A stretch of 53,394 bases of DNA from a virus. Lineage: Duplodnaviria > Caudoviricetes. The stretch covers positions 1-53,394 of the IMG/VR virus record IMGVR_UViG_3300014913_000002; one strand, given 5' to 3'. The position numbers and the translations under genes were made by a program. The notes under the pieces were generated by a model that was not told the DNA's origin, did no database searches, and was given only the letters and a program-made list of their open reading frames with translations. Shown in pieces: positions 2,508 to 51,544 of this stretch. Positions within the stretch are counted from its first letter, which is position 1. Every line of letters starts with the position of its first letter.

Positions 2508-2924
2508 TTACTCCAGATTATCAAAATAAGCTCGTTTTTCGCCATTATCATATTCGCATGGATTCATTAATTGAACCAGATATATCTTCTTTGAAGCTGT
2601 GAAATTAGCCTCAATTTTCTCCCAAGCTCCATTTCCTGAAGCAGAAGCCTCGGCCATTATTTCACCTGTATCCGGGTCAATAATTCTCATGTAAACCTTT
2701 CCTGCCTCTGGCGGATATACATAAACCGAAACGGTTACATCTCCAGCATCGCAACCATACCAAACCTCACAAACTCCACCGTGCTTCAGCTCAAGAGCAT
2801 AAGAGCCAGCATACACAGTATTTGATTGAAGCCTGAATTTATTTTGCAGGGGCCAGAGATTCACGCCGTAAAACAAATTTTCAGACTCATTAATTACGAT
2901 TGAAACCCCATTATAATCAGCCAT
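2508..2924 (-). CDS. Putative virion protein (carbohydrate-binding-like beta sandwich)
   Basis: Tail module position; GSYALEL...WEKIEANF...YFDNLE pattern; start placed at MADYNG. Confidence 0.5.
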   Translation of the reverse strand: MADYNGVSIVINESENLFYGVNLWPLQNKFRLQSNTVYAGSYALELKHGGVCEVWYGCDAGDVTVSVYVYPPEAGKVYMRIIDPDTGEIMAEASASGNGAWEKIEANFTASKKIYLVQLMNPCEYDNGEKRAYFDNLE

Positions 2925-2926
2925 TT

Positions 2927-3697
2927 TTACGCCTTCTTTACGAGGCAACCGTTACTTCCACTATCTACCACCAACCACTCATATCCATCCAGACTTACAG
3001 TTTGTCCGTTGGTAAGATTGCTAGCATTATAATACTTGCATACCCCTTCAAGTTGGCCCATAATCTTTTTTGTATTAATATTTAAAATAGGTGTTTCAAA
3101 TATCATTACGGTTGAGGCTATTGTTAACAAAGATTGATAGCTTGAAGTATCTGCTCTTGATGCTAAGATTGTGCCTGAGTTACCGTTTTCATCAAAAAGA
3201 CATGCCCAGCCACTATAAGACCCCAAATTATAATATCCTAAGGGATTATAAGTAGAACCCGAACTTGTAGCCACAATAGCTATAGGCATATTTTTTGAGA
3301 CATCAAATCGAATCAACTGGCCAATGTAATAAGCATATCCAGAAGCCAAGTATACAAAAATAAACCTGTGGTTAGAGACGGCTATCCCGTATCCACCACT
3401 GGGTTTTCGGATATACATAGTATTGCTATTTATTTGAGTTAAGCTATTTCCTGTTCCACTGTGAGAACCAGAATCCCATCCTTCCCAAAGCTCTACGATG
3501 GCGTAATCTGCGTAATTATCATCTATTTTGACATAATAATCCACATTAGCCGAGGCATCATAGTTTCGATAAACTTTTGCATTTGTCCCTGCTGAGCCAT
3601 CATAGACCGACCAATAATCGTTTACCACAAGATAAGTATCCAAAATCGAAAGCAAAGCTCCTGCTGATTGACTCATTGTTCCGGTATTCCAAGCCAT
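2927..3697 (-). CDS. Putative virion/tail protein
   Basis: 256 aa, Ser/Gly/Tyr-rich, MAWNTGT start, tail module. Confidence 0.55.
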   Translation of the reverse strand: MAWNTGTMSQSAGALLSILDTYLVVNDYWSVYDGSAGTNAKVYRNYDASANVDYYVKIDDNYADYAIVELWEGWDSGSHSGTGNSLTQINSNTMYIRKPSGGYGIAVSNHRFIFVYLASGYAYYIGQLIRFDVSKNMPIAIVATSSGSTYNPLGYYNLGSYSGWACLFDENGNSGTILASRADTSSYQSLLTIASTVMIFETPILNINTKKIMGQLEGVCKYYNASNLTNGQTVSLDGYEWLVVDSGSNGCLVKKA

Positions 3698-19086: not shown

Positions 19087-19424
19087 CTCCTGAATAGAGT
19101 TTTCTCCGTGGTGATGGATTTCAGCCTTGGGTGGCCTTGCCTCCTGGTGACCATCTTTGCGATGGTGGGTCTATATCTCCAGCTCAGACCAATAAAGGCT
19201 GGTGCCGCTTAGTTTAAAACGGCACCGTTACTCCTCCCACTCATGGCGGGTGAGCTTTCCGGCTGATTATTCTATATAACAATCTCCACCGGATTGGCCT
19301 TGAGCCTGATATTCTCCGCTCGGAGAGCTACCCCTTTTGCTGACACCAGCGGAGATAAGTTCTTGTGTTAACCTATGTTAACTGACAAAAAGCCGGTTAA
19401 CATAAGTCAGCACAAGAAGAGATT

Positions 19425-19496
19425 TGGAGCTGGCCGGAGTCGAACCGGCGTTTTCCGGTGTGCAAGACCGGAGCCTTCCCTCTAGACCACAGCCCC
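19425..19496 (-). tRNA. tRNA-Ala(UGC)
   Basis: Cloverleaf GGGGCTG-TG-GTCT..AGGC-T-CCGGT CTTGCAC ACCGG-AAAAC-GCCGG TTCGACT CCGGC-CAGCTCC-A; G3:U70 Ala identity pair; CCA not encoded. Confidence 0.95.
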
Positions 19497-19577
19497 ATAA
19501 TGTACATTTGAAATGTACATCTTAAATGCTCGACTAATCGTACAATTTATTGCTCACTTGTGCAATTTATTGCTCGC

Positions 19578-27399: not shown

Positions 27400-28881
27400 C
27401 TATAAACCCAACTCTATTTCTTCAATCTTGTCTAAAGCTGATTTCCCGTTTTCTATGGCTTTTAAAACATCAAAAACTTTCTCTGACCACCCGGAAATAA
27501 GAAAAACATCATTATTGTTGACTTCCAGCGGAGTATTACCGTAACCGGCTAAATCAAAAAGATAAAGCTTTGCCCTAGGATTAATTGTTTGTTTATAGAT
27601 GCTCCACTCTTCTTTTAAATTCTTCCCCTGGAGACTAGAATCCCATAGCTGACAATCCGTAAAGATCATAATCTTATCAACAAAAAGCTCTTTTTGGTTT
27701 AGCCATTCAATAACTTTCCATCCATTTGTGCTATACCCGACTTCCCCCTCTCTTCTATGAAACTCATCAGCATTTCTTAGAATTGAATCTTTAGGAACAC
27801 CAATGACTTTCCAGGTATCCCCAAACATCCCCACAATTGCTTTTTTGCATTTTAAATTTAGCATCATCCCCAAAACGATGCCAATATCAAAATATTGAAT
27901 CTTTGACCGAGGGGAAACTTGGTTTTCCATTGAACCAGAAACATCACAAGCAATTAAAACATTCGAGTCGCTATCAATAGGAATATTCTCACAACTAGCT
28001 TTGATAGCTTTTTCAAGAGCGTCCTCAACAAGATTAAAATTAAAGCTGGCCACTTTTTTAATTTCTCGATATACGGCCAAAAACCTAAATGGCAACTGTT
28101 TCGATTTCTTTACCGCTTCCGGATTGCTTAAATAAGCCAAAACTTTATTAAGGTGTTCTCCGCTAACCTGGGCATTTAAAATATTTCGCAGGTTTCTCAA
28201 TAACGCCATATAGCCAACTTTGCCAGAATCAATCAGCTCTTCCCAAACTTCTTTGGTGTTTCCCCTCTCTGAAAGCTGGGTTTCCCAGGTGTATGGCGGA
28301 GTTAATTCATCATTTGCAATTTTCTTAAATAATTGCTCTTGTTCTTTGGTTCTTGGTTTGGGATGAGTAAGAAATAAAACATCTCTCAGCTTAATTTCCG
28401 TCTTCCGGTTATACTTAGCAAATTGATATTCATCAAATTTCAGAAAAGCCCTGGCAATTCCCTTCTGTAATTGTTTGGATAACTTGTTTAATTTTTCCTC
28501 TTTATCATTCGCCAACCAATAATAAGCCAGAATTTCATAAAGCTCGTCAGCCCGTTGAATGATTCTCTCTACCAGCCTGCTAACTAGGCTATCACCATTG
28601 TGGATTTTTGCCAATTCAACCGCTAACACCAAGGGAATGCTCCGCAAATACATTTTTTCCCTAGCATAAACAGCCAACTTAGCCACAAATTCAGCGGGAA
28701 CCTTTTTTATTAAATCCCTTATTTCACCGAGTTGAGAATTAACATCCTCATAAAATTTCGGCTGAAGTGAAGCCGTGCAAATACGTGTATAAAGCTCTAA
28801 TTTAGGCCACAGCTTATAAGCCGTTTCCCCCTCGTAATTGACGGTTTTGTTTTTACCCCTGGCTGGTTGAGAGAATCTCAT
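27400..28881 (-). CDS. TROVE-domain Ro60-like RNA-binding protein with vWA domain
   Basis: NYEG..AY, AVYAR..MYLRS, RADE, FDEYQFAKY, LRDVLFLTHPKP, TWE, YMALLRNLRN, LPFRF, DVSGSM, FTD.Q; GGAGG RBS before ATG 28881. Confidence 0.95.
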   Translation of the reverse strand: MRFSQPARGKNKTVNYEGETAYKLWPKLELYTRICTASLQPKFYEDVNSQLGEIRDLIKKVPAEFVAKLAVYAREKMYLRSIPLVLAVELAKIHNGDSLVSRLVERIIQRADELYEILAYYWLANDKEEKLNKLSKQLQKGIARAFLKFDEYQFAKYNRKTEIKLRDVLFLTHPKPRTKEQEQLFKKIANDELTPPYTWETQLSERGNTKEVWEELIDSGKVGYMALLRNLRNILNAQVSGEHLNKVLAYLSNPEAVKKSKQLPFRFLAVYREIKKVASFNFNLVEDALEKAIKASCENIPIDSDSNVLIACDVSGSMENQVSPRSKIQYFDIGIVLGMMLNLKCKKAIVGMFGDTWKVIGVPKDSILRNADEFHRREGEVGYSTNGWKVIEWLNQKELFVDKIMIFTDCQLWDSSLQGKNLKEEWSIYKQTINPRAKLYLFDLAGYGNTPLEVNNNDVFLISGWSEKVFDVLKAIENGKSALDKIEEIELGL

Positions 28882-28899
28882 AATTCCTCCTATAAAATC

Positions 28900-28970
28900 A
28901 AGGGGGAACAAACGAGAGGGGGGAGGGATTTACTGTCCTGCCGAAGTATCCCCTCTCTCCGCCACCCCTT
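28900..28970 (-). ncRNA. Y-RNA-like hairpin 2 (Tyr-anticodon-like apical loop)
   Basis: AAGGGG-UGGCGGA-GAGAGGGG-AUACUUCGGCA-GGA CAGUAAA UCC...CCCCUCUC-GUUUGUUC-CCCCUU; directly upstream of the TROVE gene. Confidence 0.75.
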
Positions 28971-34123: not shown

Positions 34124-34936
34124 TCACCTCTTTATGCCATAAAAATCCATCATTATTTCCATACAAAGCTTGTTTACAAAATCCCTATCCACCTTCTCTT
34201 GTAATTTTGAGTGAATCAGGGCATCTTCTATTCTGCTAAATAGCTCCTCGGAATATTTAAGGACTCTTTCCAACGACCATTCTCCCCTTTTTATCTCCAA
34301 AAGCATTTGGCTATCGGGTCTTTCCACGATCAGCTCTCCGGTAGAAAGCAACTCTATCCCCATCTTGAGCAACCGTATTAAATGACTAGCATTTTTGGTG
34401 TCATAGCCGAATTTTTCAAGAAGTTCTTTTCTTTTGGCTCCCATTCTCCCTGTATTGGGATGTGTCATTCGGTGAAGCTGACCATAAGCATAACCACAGA
34501 AGGAGTGATAGCATTGTTTTGAGATTAATTTGTTTCTATTCTTGATTAATCTTTCTCCTAGCTCTGTGCGGATTATGTAATATTTGTCAGTCAGCCAAAG
34601 TAAACACAAAATATTTGGATTTTGCTTAAGGATTAAATTCATGTATTTAGGAAGACTATAATAAACCACATCCCAGACAATCATTTTTTTCTGGGAAATT
34701 TTCTCTTCCCACATTCTTTCAACAGTTTCTAAGTTATCTATACCAAAACAAGTGCTCTCTGGCGGGATAAACACCCCCATTATATCTTTGTCGTCATGAG
34801 TAGTGTTTACATCATAAGTGCCGTGTGCAATACTGCCTCGATAACCCTTGAGAATCATATAATTTTCCAAGCTTTGTAACTCTTTTTCACTAACCTTCAT
34901 TGTTCCATCCTTAAAGCTTTCCCACCCCAATCCCAC
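34124..34936 (-). CDS. Pol-beta-superfamily nucleotidyltransferase (RNA-repair-associated RlaP/YcgL-like)
   Basis: RGSIAHGT...DDKDIMGVF, NPNIL..LW, GYA..Q, YDTKNASHLIRLL. Confidence 0.85.
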   Translation of the reverse strand: MGLGWESFKDGTMKVSEKELQSLENYMILKGYRGSIAHGTYDVNTTHDDKDIMGVFIPPESTCFGIDNLETVERMWEEKISQKKMIVWDVVYYSLPKYMNLILKQNPNILCLLWLTDKYYIIRTELGERLIKNRNKLISKQCYHSFCGYAYGQLHRMTHPNTGRMGAKRKELLEKFGYDTKNASHLIRLLKMGIELLSTGELIVERPDSQMLLEIKRGEWSLERVLKYSEELFSRIEDALIHSKLQEKVDRDFVNKLCMEIMMDFYGIKR

Positions 34937-39348: not shown

Positions 39349-39948
39349 TTAATGCTCATCCCAAAAAATATGTCTTAAATACCATTTTGATTTAACCGAT
39401 TTGATCACACATAAAAATTTAGCCTGGTCAAATCTATCTCCTTTTAATCTAACGCCGTTTACTTTTTGTGATGGGTATATTTCTTCAATAAATCTAAACC
39501 CAAAATCATTTGCATAGGTTATTATTCTGTTTCTAATCTCTTGGTTTGAATTATAAATTCTTAGGTTTGATCTGTGCCAATTCCCTTCTGCATCAAAAAT
39601 ACCAGCTAGATAACCTCTTTTGAAATCCTTGTTTATTTCTGAGGGGGTTGTGATTTTTTTAATTCTTATCAATATATTAGCTTTACGGGTTTCAATTTTA
39701 TATATATCCCCATAAAATGGCCTTATATTTAACCTAATTCCTAGCCGTCTAAGGTATTGTCGAACTCTTTTTAGGATTGCCTTATCTTTAACCGCAATCC
39801 TCCAATACCATTGGTTTTCTCTATATGTGTTTTTATAAGTCGGCATTTTAAATGTTCCGTCCCCGTCAGTCATTCCTGCTATATAACCAGCTATATATCC
39901 CCGGTTTCCATTAAAGATGTCGGTCCATTCAATTTTGGTTTTGTTCAT
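39349..39948 (-). CDS. LAGLIDADG homing endonuclease (two-motif) with a DUF5131-like first 10 aa
   Basis: GYIAGMTDGDG and GYLAGIFDAEG; begins MNKTKIEWTD. Confidence 0.85.
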   Translation of the reverse strand: MNKTKIEWTDIFNGNRGYIAGYIAGMTDGDGTFKMPTYKNTYRENQWYWRIAVKDKAILKRVRQYLRRLGIRLNIRPFYGDIYKIETRKANILIRIKKITTPSEINKDFKRGYLAGIFDAEGNWHRSNLRIYNSNQEIRNRIITYANDFGFRFIEEIYPSQKVNGVRLKGDRFDQAKFLCVIKSVKSKWYLRHIFWDEH

Positions 39949-41230: not shown

Positions 41231-41640
41231 AACTCAAACCTCCCTTCTTTCGGGTAAAAAACTCTATTGCGAATCCTTCCTACTTCTTCAGCCACTTGCC
41301 GAAACGGAGAATATCGTTTCACAACTATTTCTGTGCGATTGATTTTCTGAAATATAAACACCTCATCGCCCGGTGCCCAGGGGATATTTTTCAGTTTCTC
41401 CACTTTCCGGCCTATACTTGAATCCAATGTCGCCTGTATCCATAGGGTGCGGTAGTCTTTCTTTGCTATTAGGTCAACACAATTGAAAATATCGGTTTTC
41501 CGGCTGACCCAAACCATGCCCTTTTTTGTATAAATCGGTTTCGCTGATGGTGTTTCGTTATGAACAATCCAACCTCGCTCTTCCAGCCACTTTTGAATCC
41601 AGCGTTGGAACCCTAGACCTTTATCACGTTTTGTGCTCAT
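41227..41640 (-). CDS. PD-(D/E)xK nuclease, Holliday junction resolvase-like
   Basis: KGLGFQR...LEERGW, DIFNCVDLIA, WIQA. Confidence 0.7.
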   Translation of the reverse strand: MSTKRDKGLGFQRWIQKWLEERGWIVHNETPSAKPIYTKKGMVWVSRKTDIFNCVDLIAKKDYRTLWIQATLDSSIGRKVEKLKNIPWAPGDEVFIFQKINRTEIVVKRYSPFRQVAEEVGRIRNRVFYPKEGRFEL

Positions 41641-42185
41641 TTGGGCCTCTCCCGCCTATTTATAATTGCATCTACCAATCCATAATCAACTGCTTCTTTT
41701 GCGGTCATATATCTCAAATATGTTAGGTCTTTCCTAATTTGGCTCAGCTTTTGACCTGTTGTTTTTGCTAATAAAGTTTCCACCTTCTGTTGTAGGCGTT
41801 TAATCTCTTTGGCTTCAATTTCAATTTCTGATGCACTTCCAAAACTAAATGACCACACCTGATGAATCATTACCCTTGAGTTTGGGGTTATAAATCTCTT
41901 CCCTTTTGTCCCAGCCGACAAGACCATTGCCGCTCCAGACATCGCCTTTCCTATACAGATAGTTCGGACATCACAACTTATAAGATTCATGACATCTATA
42001 ATACTGAAGGTTGAATCCACATATCCCCCATATGAATCAATGTAAAAATAGATGTCTTGAATTGGACTCTCCCATTCTAAAAGCAAAAGCTTTTCGTTTA
42101 TCTCTTTTGCCTTTTTTTCATCAATTCTCCCATTGAGAAAAATGATTCTTCCTTCTTTCAGTTTGTTTTCTTTCTCTTCACTCAT
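41637..42185 (-). CDS. clpP: ClpP protease homologue (catalytic Asp apparently replaced)
   Basis: RIIFLNG.I, YIDSYGG, GKAMSGAA, RFITPNSRVMIHQ, YMTAKEAVDYGLVD; start at MSEEKE with GGAGG RBS. Confidence 0.88.
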   Translation of the reverse strand: MSEEKENKLKEGRIIFLNGRIDEKKAKEINEKLLLLEWESPIQDIYFYIDSYGGYVDSTFSIIDVMNLISCDVRTICIGKAMSGAAMVLSAGTKGKRFITPNSRVMIHQVWSFSFGSASEIEIEAKEIKRLQQKVETLLAKTTGQKLSQIRKDLTYLRYMTAKEAVDYGLVDAIINRRERPK

Positions 42186-42196
42186 CTTTCCTCCTC

Positions 42197-42930
42197 TCAC
42201 AAAATAGCCAGGGCGTCTTCCAGGTGAGATAGCTCTTGTTTTAGGTATTCACAAAATAGACGCCCTTGCTCATCTGGTGGACAGAGACACCCCACATCCG
42301 GATTCAATAAACACTCATCCTGACTGACTCCGGCTTCCGGACACTTACCTTGTTCGCAGAGCCCCAATTGTTCTTCCACTTTTCCCATCCTCTCTATAAG
42401 TCTCTGTCTTTCTTGTTCCCTTTCGTATTCAAAGAATTTTTGTTCCAATGGGTCTTTAAGCATTGGTAGCCCCCTTAATAAAAACTCGGCCAAGTTTCTT
42501 TGTCGACCATACTAACCAATACCTCTTTCAGTTTTTTAATGAGCTCAACAATAGTATTGGGGTCTAAATACATCAGGGTTTCTTTTCCATTTTTATCCAC
42601 AAACCATAAGTGGTCTTGGTCAAAATAAATCCCAATTTTACAATCTTTGGTATTACAGGCACATTTAATCATTTTTATTCCCTTCCCTTCCAGCCACAAA
42701 AAGACAGGCCGTCCAAAACCCAAACCAAAACATAAAAAACCCGACAATTACATACCACATTGTTCCCCCTTTAAAATCTCTATAGCCCGGTCAATCTGGG
42801 CTATAATTATTTTGGCGTGTTTTTCAATAATTTCCCGGTCTTTCTCAGGCCAGGGTTTCTTTATGGATTCTCGGTATTGCCTTTTTGATGCCTCAAGAAT
42901 ATTCAAGACATAATTCATATTTACCCCCAA
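42197..42930 (-). other. Three small hypothetical ORFs (42197-42493, 42475-42747, 42748-42930)
   Basis: Coupled ORFs between dnaB and clpP. Confidence 0.5.
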
Positions 42931-44210
42931 TTTAGCCCAGCCGGCTTTTTGGGTTGGTTCTCCGGGATTGAGCCATCGCTTTCCTCAACTTCCATCATCT
43001 TCCCGGTCTCAGAGTCAAACCTGACTTTTATCCCCCCAGTCCGGCCACGCTTATTTTTTATTAGTCGAACATACCTAAAGCCTTCCCACTCACCCGGGTG
43101 GCTTGGATGTTCGTATGGATTCGATATGCCAATCATAAAGTCTGAATTCTCCTCAATTGCTCCGGAATCCCGGGCTGAATCCAATCGCACCGCTTCATAT
43201 TCGGCCACCGCCCGAGAAAGCTGGACTAAAAGAATTAGAAAGATTTCTCTTTCTTTCGCCAGATTTTTAAGATCTAGCATCTTGCGGGTCGTCTTTTCAT
43301 AAAGGCTTCCCGGCTGGTCGGTTTTAATGATATTTAAATAATCAATTAAAATAATTCTTAAATCATCTTCTTTGACAATCTGATTAATATCATCCACCGA
43401 GTAAGGCTTCTCGTAAATTTTAAGGTTGCCGGCATGATGGTTTACAAAATCTTCTGTCACCAGCTCACCCTTAATCATCCTTGACCGCACCTCCTGAAAA
43501 CTCATCCCATACCAGCTTTGGACCATCCGCATCACTAAAGCCTCTTTTGTCATCTCAAGGCTAAAAAACCCAATGGGTATGTCCATTGTATTTACTAGGT
43601 GCTGGGTTATATGAAGGGCGAAAAAAGTTTTACCGGCCGTAGGTCGTCCAAGAATCGAAAGAAGTTCTCCGTAATTGTAACTATGAACCCAGTGGTCGAG
43701 AGAAGGAAAACCGATAGTTATCCCAGCGCCACTCCCTAAAGTGATCCATTCAACAAATTTTTCAAATGCTATCTCAAAATCTCCGCTTTCTCGTTCCCTT
43801 TCAGTAACTTTAGCTTTTTCAACGATTGCTGAAATGGCCTCCCAATCGATAGGCTTCCCCCTGGCTATCTCTGATATTTCGCTTATAAGCATTCGGTGAG
43901 CTTTCTCTTTCTTTATCTCTTCAATCAATCTTAAAAGTTCTTTTTCCTGCCAACCCAAGGGAATTCCCTTAACCCAATCTGAGGTTATAAATTCAGCCAA
44001 CTCCGAACCGGAAATAAAAGTTTTGCTTTGGTCATAAAGCTGAATCAAATCAATTCGCCCTTCCTTCTCATAGAGTTCTTTCATTTTCTGAAAAAGCGTG
44101 TGGTATCTTTTCCGAGTAAACAAGTCTTCTGAATAATTTGCCCTCAATACAGGAAATAGATGGGGGTAATGAAAAATCATAGAGAAGATTAATTTTTCTT
44201 TATCCATCAC
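42921..44210 (-). CDS. dnaB: Replicative DNA helicase (DnaB family)
   Basis: GRPTAGKT, FSLEM, IDYL, QLSR, RDSGAIEENSD, KNKRG. Confidence 0.93.
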   Translation of the reverse strand: MMDKEKLIFSMIFHYPHLFPVLRANYSEDLFTRKRYHTLFQKMKELYEKEGRIDLIQLYDQSKTFISGSELAEFITSDWVKGIPLGWQEKELLRLIEEIKKEKAHRMLISEISEIARGKPIDWEAISAIVEKAKVTERERESGDFEIAFEKFVEWITLGSGAGITIGFPSLDHWVHSYNYGELLSILGRPTAGKTFFALHITQHLVNTMDIPIGFFSLEMTKEALVMRMVQSWYGMSFQEVRSRMIKGELVTEDFVNHHAGNLKIYEKPYSVDDINQIVKEDDLRIILIDYLNIIKTDQPGSLYEKTTRKMLDLKNLAKEREIFLILLVQLSRAVAEYEAVRLDSARDSGAIEENSDFMIGISNPYEHPSHPGEWEGFRYVRLIKNKRGRTGGIKVRFDSETGKMMEVEESDGSIPENQPKKPAGLNWG

Positions 44211-45460
44211 TTACCCCTATTAATCATATCTTTTTCCAACTCGGCCTGTATTTCTTCCCACGGCCGGACATCTGTTTTTCTAGCCTTCTTTGTCCCTCCG
44301 GTTCCCCCTCGGTCTTGTTGTCGGTTCAGCCAATTAATGATAAACCGTTTATAGTTTTTCTTTCTTTTGTCCGGATTAGCCAAAAGCCAGGCTCTCATTT
44401 TTTTGAGCTCAGCTCTTACATTACAGGCCGGATATGCATCAACCCAAACTTGAATGTCTTCAGGAGTAATATTTTCCCATTTTCTAGTTTCAAAATTAAA
44501 TGTTATCTTGGGGGGCTTTGAGGATGGCTTCGAATCGTTTTTACGATTTGGAGCTGTAGTATATTTAACGCCACTATCTATATATATATTATTATTACTA
44601 GATTTAGTGCCTATTACTTGATCTTGGCTACTATTATTATTCTTTTCTTTTCTTTTCTTTTCTTTATTAGATAAGGTATTTTCATCTAAGAATATCCCAT
44701 TCTTTTTTAAGAATAGGGTATTTTTAATTTGATTTAGGGTTAAATTTTTATTAAATACCTTATTAAATTTTTCTAGTTTTTTAGGAAAATTTAATAATTC
44801 TTTTAAGGCTTCGAACATATGATATGATTGAGCCGAGACAAAAGGAAATCCAACTTCTTCTGGTAAATTGTTTAATTTCTTTTGATTACACTTTTTACAA
44901 CAACAAACTAAATTTGCATAATTTGTTCTTCCGCCTTTTGATAAGGGAATAATATGATCTATTTCTAGATTTTTATGATTTAGTATTTCTTTCCCACAAT
45001 ACCGACACTTAAAATCATCTCTTATTGCAATTACTTCCCTTTGAGATAAAGAGATTTTATTTTTTTCTATATCTTCAAGTTCTTGAAAAATGTCATCGTA
45101 AAAAATAATGAATTCCCTTTTTATATCACAATTGGGAATTGATTTAATTTCTTCTTTTATTCTTTTTGTTACTTTTAAACTAGAATTTGGTTGGTGTTTT
45201 AAGAAATTGATTACCCATATAATATTTTCTTCATATTTAATTTTTCCATCTTCCATAAATTTTTTGATAATCTCTTTTACCCGATTTAATTCACACCCCG
45301 TTTCAAAGGCGATTGTCTTTAATGAGATAGGATAGATTCCGGCTTGATTTGAATGTTCATTTGTGAAAAGCCATATAAAAATTAATTTTTCATCTGGTTC
45401 TAACTCAAGAATATAAGGATCAGACCAAAATTTGCATTTAATATAACGGAAATCAGCCAT
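44207..45460 (-). CDS. Replication initiator/replisome organiser with an embedded HNH endonuclease domain
   Basis: N-terminal FWSDPYI...KLIFIWLFTN..GIY; central RDDFKCRYCG..EIDHIIPLSKGG..NLVCCCKKCN..K; C-terminal W..AYP..NV..EL.KM..W..AN...RFIINWL. Confidence 0.85.
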   Translation of the reverse strand: MADFRYIKCKFWSDPYILELEPDEKLIFIWLFTNEHSNQAGIYPISLKTIAFETGCELNRVKEIIKKFMEDGKIKYEENIIWVINFLKHQPNSSLKVTKRIKEEIKSIPNCDIKREFIIFYDDIFQELEDIEKNKISLSQREVIAIRDDFKCRYCGKEILNHKNLEIDHIIPLSKGGRTNYANLVCCCKKCNQKKLNNLPEEVGFPFVSAQSYHMFEALKELLNFPKKLEKFNKVFNKNLTLNQIKNTLFLKKNGIFLDENTLSNKEKKRKEKNNNSSQDQVIGTKSSNNNIYIDSGVKYTTAPNRKNDSKPSSKPPKITFNFETRKWENITPEDIQVWVDAYPACNVRAELKKMRAWLLANPDKRKKNYKRFIINWLNRQQDRGGTGGTKKARKTDVRPWEEIQAELEKDMINRGK

Positions 45461-45689
45461 ATTGTTCCCCTCTTTGCTCTGACATGAATTTATCAATTAA
45501 TTCCCGGATTTCCTTTTCGTCCCCCTCAATATCTTCAAACCGGAGATGACAAAATCGGCCGTGCCTATCGTAGGCAAACACAAAGCATGGCCTTATGCTT
45601 CCATCTAGCTTTTGCTCAAAATCAATCCTGTAAATCTCAATTATTTCTCTTGTTCCTTTAATCCGAATACTCATCTGATAAATCTCCAC
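45453..45689 (-). CDS. Hypothetical protein
   Basis: Overlaps the initiator start. Confidence 0.5.
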   Translation of the reverse strand: MEIYQMSIRIKGTREIIEIYRIDFEQKLDGSIRPCFVFAYDRHGRFCHLRFEDIEGDEKEIRELIDKFMSEQRGEQYG

Positions 45690-48105: not shown

Positions 48106-48327
48106 CTAAAAAAGAAGATTTTCTAGGGGAATGCCAGTTTTTTTATGAATCTTCAGGGCCAGCTTTTTTCCGAATTTTCGCTTACCACGAAAATAATAAG
48201 AGAGATAAGATTCAGATACCCCTAAATATCGAGACAATTCTCTCTGGGTCTCAATTTGATGAAGACACATAAATTCCTGGAGATTTTTAGGTTGTGGTTT
48301 CTTTTTGAGAAATCCTGAAATTCTCAT
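48106..48327 (-). CDS. Cro/XRE-like HTH regulator
   Basis: TQRELSRYLGVSESYLSYYFRGKR; first gene of the leftward operon. Confidence 0.85.
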   Translation of the reverse strand: MRISGFLKKKPQPKNLQEFMCLHQIETQRELSRYLGVSESYLSYYFRGKRKFGKKLALKIHKKTGIPLENLLF

Positions 48328-48336
48328 TGCAATATC

Positions 48337-48365
48337 AATATAAGGAAAAATTCTACATTTGTCAA
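48337..48365 (-). promoter_or_regulatory. Leftward early promoter
   Basis: TTGACA-N17-TATATT. Confidence 0.75.
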
Positions 48366-48502
48366 GTTCTAAATTAAAAAAATTTCAAAATCCTAATACA
48401 AAATCCTTCCTGATAATTATTGAAAAAAACCATAAAATTGCACATGGTATTGTGCAAAATTAAAAAAATTTAAAAAAAATTCAAAAAAATTTAATAAAAA
48501 AC

Positions 48503-48531
48503 TTGACAAGTGGCATATTTTGGCTTATATT
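48503..48531 (+). promoter_or_regulatory. Rightward early promoter
   Basis: TTGACA-N17-TATATT preceded by A-tracts (UP-element-like). Confidence 0.8.
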
Positions 48532-48573
48532 AATAGTAGAAAGATGAGAGAGAAAAAAGAAAGGAGAGAAAAA

Positions 48574-49014
48574 ATGAAAGAAAAGAAACAAATCATCTTA
48601 GGGACTTTTTCAGTGGTTCGAGAAACCGAGAAAGCATATCTTCTTCGTTTCAAAGGAACTTCTCGGGATTGTTGGGGTGGATTATTTTACTCTGAGAAAG
48701 ACGAGGAGTTCTGGGTTCCAAAGTCAGCCATCGAGCGGATTGGCGACGGCTATATCGTCGCTCGGTGGTGGAAACTTCGAGATGGCGATCCCGTCTTGGA
48801 CAGCACCCGCTGGCCGGGTTGTCGGGTAGTACTTTGGCTTCCCCCCTCTACACCGCGGTATGAGGAGCTGATTAGCTTAAAGGACTGGGAAGTCCAAGTC
48901 TTTCAGGTCACCTGGGCGAAGGAGCTTGGCTCAGTTGAAGTGGAGCAAGGGAAAGCATCTTTTCAGTTTTCGGATGAAGAGGCGAAGCAGATTGTTTCTG
49001 CTTTGCTTAAATAG
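48574..49014 (+). CDS. Early hypothetical protein
   Basis: AAGGAG RBS; RETEKAYL...WVPKS motif. Confidence 0.7.
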   Translation: MKEKKQIILGTFSVVRETEKAYLLRFKGTSRDCWGGLFYSEKDEEFWVPKSAIERIGDGYIVARWWKLRDGDPVLDSTRWPGCRVVLWLPPSTPRYEELISLKDWEVQVFQVTWAKELGSVEVEQGKASFQFSDEEAKQIVSALLK

Positions 49015-49029
49015 AGAAAGGAGGTAAAG

Positions 49030-49134
49030 ATGACAAAAGTAAAATTTTTTCTTTTCAAAATTCTTTTTCCAGGAATCTATCAAAAATTCAAATGGATGGA
49101 AGAAGAGCTGAGCGGATTTTATCTTCATTGTTAA
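49030..49134 (+). CDS. 34-aa early peptide
   Basis: AAGGAGGT RBS; MTKVKFFLFKILFPGIYQKFKWMEEELSGFYLHC*. Confidence 0.6.
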   Translation: MTKVKFFLFKILFPGIYQKFKWMEEELSGFYLHC

Positions 49135-49205
49135 GCCGAAATAGCCGGGAATCACCCGGCTATCCTTCCACCGTTGGCCGGGTGGAGGCTGACGAGGCAG
49201 GCCAA
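49135..49205 (+). ncRNA. Type II hammerhead ribozyme
   Basis: GCC-GAAA-UAGCCGGG(AAUCA)CCCGGCUA-UC^-CUUCCACC(GUUGGCCG)GGUGGAGG-CUGACGA-GGC; loop I UUGGCC pairs with the 3' GGCCAA; cleavage predicted after C49164. Confidence 0.9.
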
Positions 49206-49230
49206 GAAAAATTTTCAGGGAGGTTTCAAG

Positions 49231-49434
49231 ATGAAAAGATATGAAGCTTTAAGGATTTATCAGCGGTCACCAGAGGTAGCAGGTTTTCATCCGGAGGATA
49301 TGTTCAAGGTTAAGTGTGCCAATTGCGGACGATTTTTTTCTATGTATAGGAATCATCACACAGTAAAACAAGGTGAGATAATAGAGGGAATTATCCAGTG
49401 CGAGTGTGGGCAGTGGCATAGATTTATAGATTAA
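49231..49434 (+). CDS. Early zinc-ribbon protein
   Basis: GGAGG RBS; CANC and CECG. Confidence 0.7.
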   Translation: MKRYEALRIYQRSPEVAGFHPEDMFKVKCANCGRFFSMYRNHHTVKQGEIIEGIIQCECGQWHRFID

Positions 49435-49532
49435 AAATGGTCAATATTTTATCGATCGCTGGGCTTTTCATTTGCTTGGCCGTCCTGGCCATCCGAGTCG
49501 GGACGGCCAGAAATTTTTATAGGAGGTTTTAA

Positions 49533-49742
49533 ATGAAAAGATTGGTCAATGAAAGGTTTGATGATGGCTCTCTATTCCAAATTTATTGGGATGGAGAACG
49601 GACTCTTTATGTCCGTGAGGCAAGCCTGGAGTTTGAAAGGATTATAGAGGTTTTTCTATTACCCAGACAGAAAGTCCAGGAAATTTATTGGAAAGATGCT
49701 TCAGTAGAAGATGGGGAGTATCCGGACTTTATTGAAGATTAA
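49533..49742 (+). CDS. Early hypothetical protein
   Basis: AGGAGG RBS. Confidence 0.7.
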   Translation: MKRLVNERFDDGSLFQIYWDGERTLYVREASLEFERIIEVFLLPRQKVQEIYWKDASVEDGEYPDFIED

Positions 49743-49755
49743 GGGAGAGTATAAG

Positions 49756-50229
49756 ATGAGAAAAATACATCTTGAAACCCTGCGGGAAAATTTACTGGAT
49801 GCCATGAAAAACATAGCTCAATCTACGTGGCCATTGCCAGCTGATCTTTTTGTGGAATGGTTGGTGAAATATCCGGGTCAATCCTCTAAAACACTAGGGC
49901 TTTTCCGAGATTGGTTGGAAGGAAGTAATTGGATTGTGAAAGGAGCTGAAGAAGAAGGGAAGGAAGTTTGGTGGGGTAATTATACTTATCTCCCCAATGA
50001 ATTTGTGAATTTCGCCCAAGACTGGGTAGAGGAGTCGGAAAGGTGGGGCTATTATTTGCATTGTTTGAAGTTTTTAAAAGAGAGGCTGGGTCTTACCTAC
50101 GAAGAAATGGCAGAGCTAATTGGTGTTTCATACAGAAGTTTATTTCGATGGCTGAGGGAAGGTCTATCACCATCTCGAATGGCGATACAAGTGATTGAGA
50201 ATTACTTTAGACAAGTTCGAATCCCTTAA
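49756..50229 (+). CDS. Early protein with C-terminal XRE HTH
   Basis: LGLTYEEMAELIGVSYRSLFRW. Confidence 0.75.
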   Translation: MRKIHLETLRENLLDAMKNIAQSTWPLPADLFVEWLVKYPGQSSKTLGLFRDWLEGSNWIVKGAEEEGKEVWWGNYTYLPNEFVNFAQDWVEESERWGYYLHCLKFLKERLGLTYEEMAELIGVSYRSLFRWLREGLSPSRMAIQVIENYFRQVRIP

Positions 50230-50245
50230 CCCTAAATTTTCTTTT

Positions 50246-50280
50246 ATCCCCGGGGTCTTCGGATTCCCGGGGATTTTTTT
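50246..50280 (+). terminator. Intrinsic terminator between convergent operons
   Basis: ATCCCCGGGGTC-TTCG-GATTCCCGGGGAT followed by a T-tract. Confidence 0.8.
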
Positions 50281-51544
50281 ATCCCTCCATAATTTTATCA
50301 ACCGCCCTCTTGATCGCCTTTAGTTCCGGCAACTTATTTAGTTTATAATCTACTCCAAATTTCTGTGTTTCTTTCTCAGTAAGACCCTCAAGGGCACAGT
50401 GTTTCCAAAAGCTCATATTTGGAACATCGGTTTTCTTCGCCCAGGCTCCGGCAGACATGATAATCCAACCACCACCACCGGCGACATAGTCAGTTATGAG
50501 GCCAATCATCATATCCCAGCTAGCCGGCCGGGAGAATTCTTTGTTCCAATTCCAGCCACGCAAGCCCCGACCGACAAGTTTCTCATCCCAGGTCTGCGCT
50601 CCATCTGAGTCAGAGATGATCCGCCGGCCACAAGGTTTATAGAAATATGTCTGAAATTCACAACCCTTAAGGTGATACCGATTGAATGCCCAGGCGGTAT
50701 TTATTCCATGATGAGAATATAAAACCTTCTTCCATCGCTTTACCCATTTTAGCGTGATAGAGCTGTCTATATGTTCAATCATAATCCGCTTTTGGGGGAG
50801 CTGGAGGTCTTTAGTCATGAAATTGACGATGTCGGTTAACCAAGCATCTAAGGTTTCAGGGTTTATACCTTGCGGCTCATTAACGACTTCCCAGATAACA
50901 TGAGGATTGTCAAACTCTTTTACCATGGCTCGGATATAGTCTTTAAAAATCGTCCGAATGGTTTGACTTGTGAAAAACCGTTTGTAATCAGTGGGTAAAT
51001 TAAGATGATTTCGGCTCCACATAGTCCATTTGTAGCGGAGACCTTTAATTCCAGAGGCAAGGCAAATTACCGTCTTGATGCCCCTCTTATGGAAACAATC
51101 AAGGCGACGGTGTATTTCGGTTGTATATTCTTCGTTTAACTCAAGAATCCCCTGGCCATCATACTTAAAAATAAATTTCCCCTTGTGTTTGGGTAAAGGG
51201 TAGAAAAAAGACACAAAGCAGTTTTTGTCTTCCAAACAATATGCAAAGAGGCGAATAGCATTGATGCCATGTTTTGCCAGAAGCTCGGCCGCATTATCAA
51301 ATTGATTGAAATTCCAGCTTGAGCCATCCTTGAAAGGAATAACAAAGCCATGTAAATCCCAAGGGACATAGCCAACCATAAAATCTTTGTAAGGAAAAAT
51401 TGTTTTGGTGTATTTCTTTTTTGGCTTAGGTTTTGGTTTGGGGTTTTCTTCTTTATATGAATCTGTGGAATATTTTGTTTTTAATAATTTTTTACAGATT
51501 TGTATAAGTTGGTTGAAGATAAATTTAAGGATTTTTTTAATCAT
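50279..51544 (-). CDS. Glycoside hydrolase-like TIM barrel (clan A, GH5-like)
   Basis: GINAIRLF, GIKTVICL, WEVVNEP acid/base motif. Confidence 0.6.
   Translation of the reverse strand: MIKKILKFIFNQLIQICKKLLKTKYSTDSYKEENPKPKPKPKKKYTKTIFPYKDFMVGYVPWDLHGFVIPFKDGSSWNFNQFDNAAELLAKHGINAIRLFAYCLEDKNCFVSFFYPLPKHKGKFIFKYDGQGILELNEEYTTEIHRRLDCFHKRGIKTVICLASGIKGLRYKWTMWSRNHLNLPTDYKRFFTSQTIRTIFKDYIRAMVKEFDNPHVIWEVVNEPQGINPETLDAWLTDIVNFMTKDLQLPQKRIMIEHIDSSITLKWVKRWKKVLYSHHGINTAWAFNRYHLKGCEFQTYFYKPCGRRIISDSDGAQTWDEKLVGRGLRGWNWNKEFSRPASWDMMIGLITDYVAGGGGWIIMSAGAWAKKTDVPNMSFWKHCALEGLTEKETQKFGVDYKLNKLPELKAIKRAVDKIMEG

Follow-up and report, generated by a model that had tools for sequence, protein, structure and literature searches.

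A predicted self-cleaving type II hammerhead ribozyme in a spacer between small genes of an uncultured sediment phage

The stretch of DNA considered here (hereafter the window) comprises 53,394 bp and is the complete genome, 53.4 kb in size and with direct terminal repeats, of a tailed phage from sediment that is uncultured. Genes on the minus strand extend to position 48327 and include those for the terminase, portal, prohead protease, Ro60, an RlaP-family nucleotidyltransferase, ClpP (41637-42200), DnaB, an HNH protein, a Cas4-like exonuclease and a cro-like HTH protein. In the replication module near DnaB, a LAGLIDADG homing-endonuclease-like ORF (39349-39948, minus strand) and a 429-aa HNH-domain protein (44207-45496, minus strand) were also recognised. 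The sole tRNA gene, that of tRNA-Ala (UGC), is placed at 19424-19497 on the minus strand; the prohead protease/capsid gene lies on one side of it and the downstream structural genes on the other. Genes for an integrase or a resolvase were not found in the phage genome, and a search of a cultured-phage collection by blastn in the 'distant' mode gave no match for the region 48300-50300. The Cas4-like exonuclease has a sole relative in species-representative genomes, which shows 65% identity and is located at 2807-3388 of a 3.4-kb contig (L056) binned to a Candidatus Moraniibacteriota MAG. This match may be regarded as a weak lead to a host from the candidate phyla radiation, the contig being short and possibly misbinned phage DNA; no hammerhead was found in these 3.4 kb.

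The cro-like HTH gene (48106-48327, minus strand) adjoins a divergent A+T-rich control region (48328-48573), on the other side of which the operon bearing the ribozyme begins. A sigma-70-type promoter-like site, TTGACA-17-TATATT, with 11 of 12 matches (48503-48531, plus strand), would drive this operon, and a twin site of the same composition at 48365-48337 on the minus strand is directed oppositely, toward the cro-like and replication genes. The control region also contains a 7-bp hairpin at 48438-57. Between the plus-strand promoter-like site and the ribozyme no terminator-like site was found. The preliminary description of this DNA had spoken of an early polycistronic operon, and its reading by the host polymerase is plausible from the sequence, since promoter-like sites point in opposite directions within the control region, no terminator-like site precedes the ribozyme and the genes form a plus-strand block; what had been presented as an early mRNA should accordingly be spoken of as a predicted transcript. 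Among the sequencing runs listed as containing this DNA, three in number, all are of DNA and none is of RNA.

The order of elements in the plus-strand block is as follows: gene A, a 34-aa ORF, the ribozyme, a 67-aa ORF, a 31-aa ORF, a 69-aa ORF and a 172-aa protein with an HTH domain at its C-terminus. Gene A (48574-49014, plus strand, 146 aa) starts with the ATG at 48574, preceded by AAAGGAGAG, and is conserved in related phages, although neither Pfam nor PHROG gave a family for it at E <= 0.001. The 34-aa ORF (49030-49134, plus strand) has GGAGG 5 nt before its ATG, matched no protein family and has no homologue in the relatives. Its possible similarity to the ORF downstream of the ribozyme in one of these relatives (L002) was rejected, the identity being 38% over 29 residues with E = 0.75. 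The ORF ends at 49134 and its stop codon abuts the ribozyme (0 nt), exactly as had been described earlier.

The ribozyme occupies the 96-nt spacer that separates the 34-aa ORF from the 67-aa ORF. The Shine-Dalgarno sequence AGGGAGG (49217-49223, plus strand) follows closely, as previously noticed, and starts 11-12 nt past the end of the ribozyme instead of the approximately 14 nt given before. The 67-aa ORF (ATG at 49231, to 49434, plus strand) shows a CxxC...CxC pattern and is the predicted first cistron of the 3' cleavage product. Downstream of it, a 31-aa hydrophobic ORF (49437-49532, plus strand) overlaps a G+C-rich hairpin of 14 bp followed by AAAUUUUUAU, a weak U-tract (49476-49510, plus strand). 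This hairpin is a possible candidate for a terminator or attenuator, and the stretch 49437-49532 could thus encode a small membrane peptide, serve as a terminator or attenuator, or do both.

The complete type II hammerhead was recognised on the plus strand at 49135-49205 by its score with the Rfam model RF02276, its sequence and its fold, and the Rfam match itself covers 49134-49206. It opens with the 5' strand of stem II, GCC (49135-49137), pairing with GGC (49196-98) in an open helix of 3 bp that contains the canonical G10.1-C11.1 pair (G49196-C49137). The core nucleotides G12, A13 and A14 together with A15.1 (GAAA, 49138-49141) align with the consensus GAAA and lead into the stem III hairpin (49141-49163), where 49141-49 pairs with 49155-63 around the loop AAUCA (49150-54). 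According to hammerhead numbering, C17 is found at 49164, and the predicted scissile bond is 49164/49165. Then the stem I hairpin follows (49165-49188), whose 8 bp are formed by 49165-72 and 49181-88 and closed by the loop GUUGGCCG (49173-80); they include one U-G wobble (49166-49187) and the pair next to the core, C49165-G49188 (1.1-2.1). The second core strand, read from the sequence as C3, U4, G5, A6, C7, G8 and A9 (CUGACGA, 49189-49195), is followed at 49196-49205 by the 3' strand of stem II, a spacer of one nucleotide (A49199) and the pseudoknot strand GGCCAA (49200-05), complementary to UUGGCC of loop I (49174-79).

The three core segments, GAAA, AUC (49162-64) and CUGACGA, as well as the 3-bp stem II and the 6-bp pseudoknot agree with the preliminary description. 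It had assigned 8 bp to stems I and III alike, and this value holds for the former; the latter has 8 bp, or 9 bp if the A15.1-U16.1 pair (A49141-U49163) is counted. No deviations from the core consensus C3-U4-G5-A6-N7-G8-A9, G12-A13-A14 and U16.1-H17 (H is not G) were found, and the standard core-adjacent pairs A15.1-U16.1, N10.1-N11.1 and N1.1-N2.1 are all present. The permutation is that of type II, with stems I and III closed by loops and stem II open and carrying the 5' and 3' ends of the RNA. The definition used includes a pseudoknot of at least 4 bp that joins loop I to the bases immediately 3' of stem II, and here it amounts to 6 bp.

The minimum-free-energy fold of the 71 nt alone is a three-helix junction. 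Its z-score against shuffled sequences, -2.2, is modest because the pseudoknot lies outside the folding model. When 176 nt of context were folded by the same nested minimum-free-energy approach, stem III persisted and stem I was partly displaced by an alternative pairing using the pseudoknot strand, in a program that does not consider pseudoknots. The reverse strand folds nearly as well, as is expected of any pair of hairpins. Neither hairpin of the ribozyme is followed by a U-tract, and the search for terminator-like sites gave none at this place. The sequence CCUUCC in stem I (5' strand) was considered as an anti-Shine-Dalgarno element; this reading was dropped because the stem I sequences of most family members are unrelated.

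A check with the Rfam Hammerhead_II model had been named in the preliminary description, and in a scan with permissive filters RF02276 matched the plus strand over the full model and scored 41.9 bits, the gathering score being 37. The E-value of this match is 1.4e-7 on 241 nt and 3e-5 when the whole window, both strands and all 4227 Rfam families are taken into account. The minus strand gave no match to RF02276, and no second ribozyme was detected in the whole window at E <= 1. A gathering-mode, fast-filter Rfam scan of the whole window reported only a tRNA and missed the hammerhead, and it was missed again by a genome-level search for the family, in which control genomes were likewise without matches. 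Both misses should be attributed to filter loss and not to score failure, since the permissive scan scores above the gathering score; the genome-level result is therefore uninformative, cmscan having found the match. Because every defining feature that can be examined in silico is present, 49135-49205 is, on these features, a member of RF02276.

Homologues of gene A with 65-75% identity were found in four viral contigs (L001-L004), and tblastn revealed homologues of the HTH protein in the same four; a pattern search for loci related to the HTH protein found none. In L002, L003 and L004, the flanking genes are common with the window at 63-89% protein identity, and a type II hammerhead scoring 44.4 bits is present at the syntenic site, which has gene A on one side and the conserved HTH gene on the other. 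The hammerhead sequence is identical in these three contigs, so they represent one independent comparison. In this comparison, which was read by eye, compensatory double changes are seen in all three stems: one C-G pair of stem II is replaced by U-A, one G-C pair of stem III by C-G, and three pairs are changed in stem I. The alignment of the window with L002 showed conservation across the ribozyme, the A-rich spacer and the Shine-Dalgarno sequence, flanked on either side by unrelated ORFs; in L002, the upstream ORF extends 20 nt into the ribozyme. L001, the closest relative by gene A, has other ORFs at the site and no hammerhead, so the hammerhead is dispensable for this group of phages. Thus, the region between gene A and the HTH gene varies, and the window, L002-L004 and L001 each have different ORFs in it.

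Directly 3' of the HTH gene, a strong terminator-like hairpin with a U8 tail is found in L002 (4518-4568), L003 (4518-4568) and L004 (4458-4508). It gave a sub-threshold match to 'NsiR1' (27.4 bits against a gathering score of 39) and is probably the intrinsic terminator ending the ribozyme-bearing operon.

A broader set of hammerheads was obtained by a pattern scan of viral contigs in which only the core and the 3' tail were fixed and loop I was left free, the set being limited in this way to ribozymes sharing one 3' tail. The scan yielded 51 stretches, among them 30 distinct hammerheads besides that of the window and about nine chance-like sequences. The latter, without stems I and III, are L008, L010, L011, L012, L027, L036, L046, L052 and L053; the division into 31 'true' and 9 'chance' sequences was made by eye. 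Automatic analysis of the 31 hammerheads by MAFFT/RNAalifold recovered stem I with covariation, proposed a spurious 3-bp hairpin in the invariant core and missed stems II and III, because the length of stem III varies and the rows were out of register. For this reason, pairs were counted in positions anchored on the core. Standard pairs occupy 450 of 465 such cells (96.8%, n = 31), a count somewhat biased toward the structure by choosing the U16.1 position with maximal pairing, and sliding the 3' partner by 1-2 nt leaves 139-205 of 465 (30-44%).

Single positions of stems I and III show up to six standard pair types. Covariation is also seen at the middle pair of stem II (U-A in 21 members, C-G in 8, G-C in 1 and A-U in 1), and the outer pairs of this stem are invariant in all 31. 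Position H17 is occupied by C in 27 members, by A in 3 and by U in 1, and N7 is C in 5 of the 31. Loop I is complementary to the 3' tail over at least 5 bp in 24 of the 31 hammerheads and over at least 4 bp in 28. The geometry of an 8-bp stem I with an 8-nt loop and a 3-bp stem II recurs in L005, L007, L015 and L021. Taken together, the covariance score, the compensatory changes at the syntenic site and the covariation across the family bear out the earlier assignment to the type II hammerheads with a predicted site after C49164. Every catalytic base and all three stems have been kept through compensatory changes, which indicates selection on the active fold and not decay.

Like that of the window, the hammerheads of the group occupy spacers between phage genes that run in the same direction. 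In 24 of 30 cases, or in 18 of 24 after collapsing homologous flanks, the start of the ribozyme is preceded at a distance of at most 6 nt by the end of an ORF of 25 aa or more, and a Shine-Dalgarno-like site with a start codon (ORF of at least 30 aa) is located within 48 nt downstream in 27 of 31. This tight spacing could be explained by the dense packing of phage genes alone. The genes flanking the 31 hammerhead loci are mostly unrelated to each other.

Summarizing these data, it may be suggested, with a probability of about 0.8 in our opinion, that 49135-49205 is an active type II hammerhead that cuts the operon RNA after C49164 and uncouples the stability and translation of its two halves. 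We infer transcription, cleavage and the effect on expression at this locus from the observed motif, its score, its conservation and its placement. Once the operon RNA was made, the ribozyme would fold and cut itself after C49164. The upstream product, containing gene A and the 34-aa ORF, would have the 9-bp hairpin of stem III at its 3' end and terminate in a 2',3'-cyclic phosphate. The downstream product would carry a 5'-OH and start with the hairpin of stem I and the pseudoknot, just before the Shine-Dalgarno sequence of the 67-aa ORF. Both 5'-OH ends and terminal hairpins are known obstacles to the common RNases of bacteria. The two halves of the operon would gain independent stability and translation because each new end would be capped by a hairpin and be chemically unlike normal decay intermediates, and the start region of the downstream half would be insulated from the upstream RNA. 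The chemistry of these ends is that described for hammerhead cleavage, in which the 5' product bears a 2',3'-cyclic phosphate and the 3' product a 5'-OH (PMC8782182).

Several other explanations of the locus should be considered. It is very improbable that the motif is a chance or decayed one, whose two hairpins only stabilise the mRNA or cause pausing or termination of transcription. The failure of the default-filter Rfam scan, the modest z-score and the almost equally good folding of the reverse strand would fit such a view, but the E-value of 3e-5 across the window and all families, the core without a single deviation from the consensus and the syntenic homologue with compensatory changes argue against it. 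Moreover, the complement of the pseudoknot strand is kept in a loop that is under no other visible constraint, and both hairpins lack U-tracts and called terminator-like sites. The preliminary description had also connected the ribozyme with RNA repair, pointing to the Ro60 protein and the RNA-repair-type nucleotidyltransferase of the same genome; in such a case these two phage proteins would handle the cyclic-phosphate and 5'-OH ends. RNA ends bearing 2',3'-cyclic phosphate and 5'-OH groups are substrates of RtcB-type ligases. Both proteins are indeed encoded: the Ro60 orthologue at 27400-28911 on the minus strand (TROVE, E = 2.7e-40; vWA_Ro60, E = 1.5e-8) and a 270-aa member of the RlaP family (PF10127, 'RNA repair pathway DNA polymerase beta family') at 34124-34936 on the minus strand (E = 1.3e-15). 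No Y RNA was identified, and Rfam had no match near the Ro60 gene at E <= 1. However, the two protein genes are 15-21 kb away on the strand opposite to that of the ribozyme, and RtcB is not encoded in the phage genome according to a search that gave matches in control genomes. Neither TROVE nor RlaP was present in any of the 50 records searched, namely 41 hammerhead-bearing records, 8 with chance patterns and L001, among them a complete 48.9-kb relative with direct terminal repeats and a syntenic hammerhead; the TROVE search recovered the window's own gene as a positive control. With 0 of 41 other hammerhead-bearing phage records carrying either domain, the connection of the ribozyme with RNA repair is unsupported and the presence of Ro60 and RlaP together with a hammerhead looks coincidental. 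In the part of the literature covered, no publication joining a hammerhead ribozyme, Ro60 and RtcB in phages was found. We therefore consider this connection to be extremely improbable.

Two further explanations proceed from an intact ribozyme and differ in the role ascribed to it. The hammerhead may be mainly a passenger or a boundary mark of exchangeable cassettes of small genes ('morons') in a hypervariable region, its cleavage being incidental to expression, a view we find quite improbable. It agrees with the variability of the stretch between gene A and the HTH gene, where the window has the 34-aa ORF, the ribozyme and the 67-, 31- and 69-aa ORFs, the ribozyme of L002-L004 is surrounded by other ORFs, and L001 has no ribozyme, and also with the unrelated genes beside most of the 31 hammerheads, a feature shared by the hammerheads in the main text of PMC3088659. 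Nevertheless, the catalytic bases and three stems have been maintained through compensatory changes, and the conservation of ribozyme, spacer and Shine-Dalgarno sequence as one unit points to a role in the expression of whichever gene follows. The same unit may be viewed as a portable expression module, in which translation of the flanking cistrons would unfold the hammerhead, so that cleavage would report on this translation or be governed by it, as a regulatory switch and not as a constitutive cut; this is unlikely, in our estimation. A ribosome terminating at the abutting stop codon, or a 30S subunit loading downstream, would unfold the ribozyme, and the operon RNA would be cut only on those transcripts, or at those times, in which the neighbouring cistron is poorly translated. 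The idea draws on the module common to the window and L002, with the ORFs swapped, on the abutment of stop codons in 18 of 24 contexts (a distance of 0 nt in the window and at most 6 nt in 24 of 30 hammerheads), on the intrusion of the L002 upstream ORF into the ribozyme by 20 nt and on the distance of 11-12 nt between the pseudoknot and the Shine-Dalgarno sequence. However, the spacing does not discriminate between gating by ribosomes and the other readings, since dense packing of phage genes alone would produce it, and such hammerheads cleave during in vitro transcription without ribosomes (PMC8782182).

Type II hammerheads in which loop I forms a pseudoknot with the 3' tail occur commonly in bacteria and prophages, and, according to PMC3088659, the pseudoknot is present in most members and is needed for fast cleavage, as was established by mutation and rescue. 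Processing of long phage transcripts was proposed there by Perreault et al. in 2011. The ribozyme of the window has the same core, permutation, position of the pseudoknot and single A spacer, and no structural difference from the hammerheads presented in that text was noticed. The context is also the same, namely phage or prophage spacers beside varied small genes. One difference is that the window has a single ribozyme in its genome, whereas the text of PMC3088659 highlights gene-flanking clusters of several hammerheads. In Desulfovibrio vulgaris, three type II hammerheads are located near hypothetical, phage-like and HTH genes, a neighbourhood similar to that described here, and their cleavage was observed in vivo and in vitro using cyPhyRNA-seq (PMC8782182, in the part concerning this species), whereas that of the window's ribozyme is predicted from sequence. 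The minimal products given in that part are 29-32 nt and 39 nt, and those predicted for the window are 30 nt (49135-64) and 41 nt (49165-205). The Desulfovibrio hammerheads belong to prophage-like regions of a bacterial chromosome, as reported in the same part of PMC8782182, and the present one belongs to a phage genome.

The type II class, its pseudoknot and its intergenic contexts in phages were thus already described in 2011, as is evident from the main text of PMC3088659, and the ribozyme of the window is an ordinary example. The abutment of the stop codon and the conserved unit of ribozyme and Shine-Dalgarno sequence are small descriptive additions; the main text of PMC3088659 contains none of the terms 'stop codon', 'Shine-Dalgarno' and 'ribosome binding', and the alignments of its Dataset S1 could already contain close relatives of this ribozyme. 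A review of 2019 stated that further work is needed on the purpose of hammerheads in bacteria and phages (PMC6765202).

The arrangement resembles one used in genetic engineering in that a cleaving hammerhead would act shortly before a Shine-Dalgarno sequence, removing the upstream RNA and leaving a structured leader with a 5'-OH. The engineered element, RiboJ, is a hammerhead insulator placed just upstream of a ribosome-binding site; it originates from a plant satellite RNA and has another permutation. The arrangement in the window differs in being natural and of type II, and by analogy it may have an insulating effect as well.

For ribozyme biology as such, the finding has little meaning, because phage type II hammerheads have been known since 2011 and some of them cleave in vivo. 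It shows that routine annotation would leave this ribozyme unmarked, and phage hammerheads are probably under-annotated, since filtered Rfam annotation missed one that scores above threshold. The co-occurrence result argues against Ro60 and RlaP as partners of the ribozyme. If cleavage were indeed gated by ribosomes, the module would provide phage hammerheads with a well-defined logic of regulation. The locus is compact, consisting of a promoter, two cistrons, the ribozyme, a Shine-Dalgarno sequence and a further cistron, and could serve in tests of the role of hammerheads; the existence of natural relatives with and without the ribozyme adds to its value for studies of expression.
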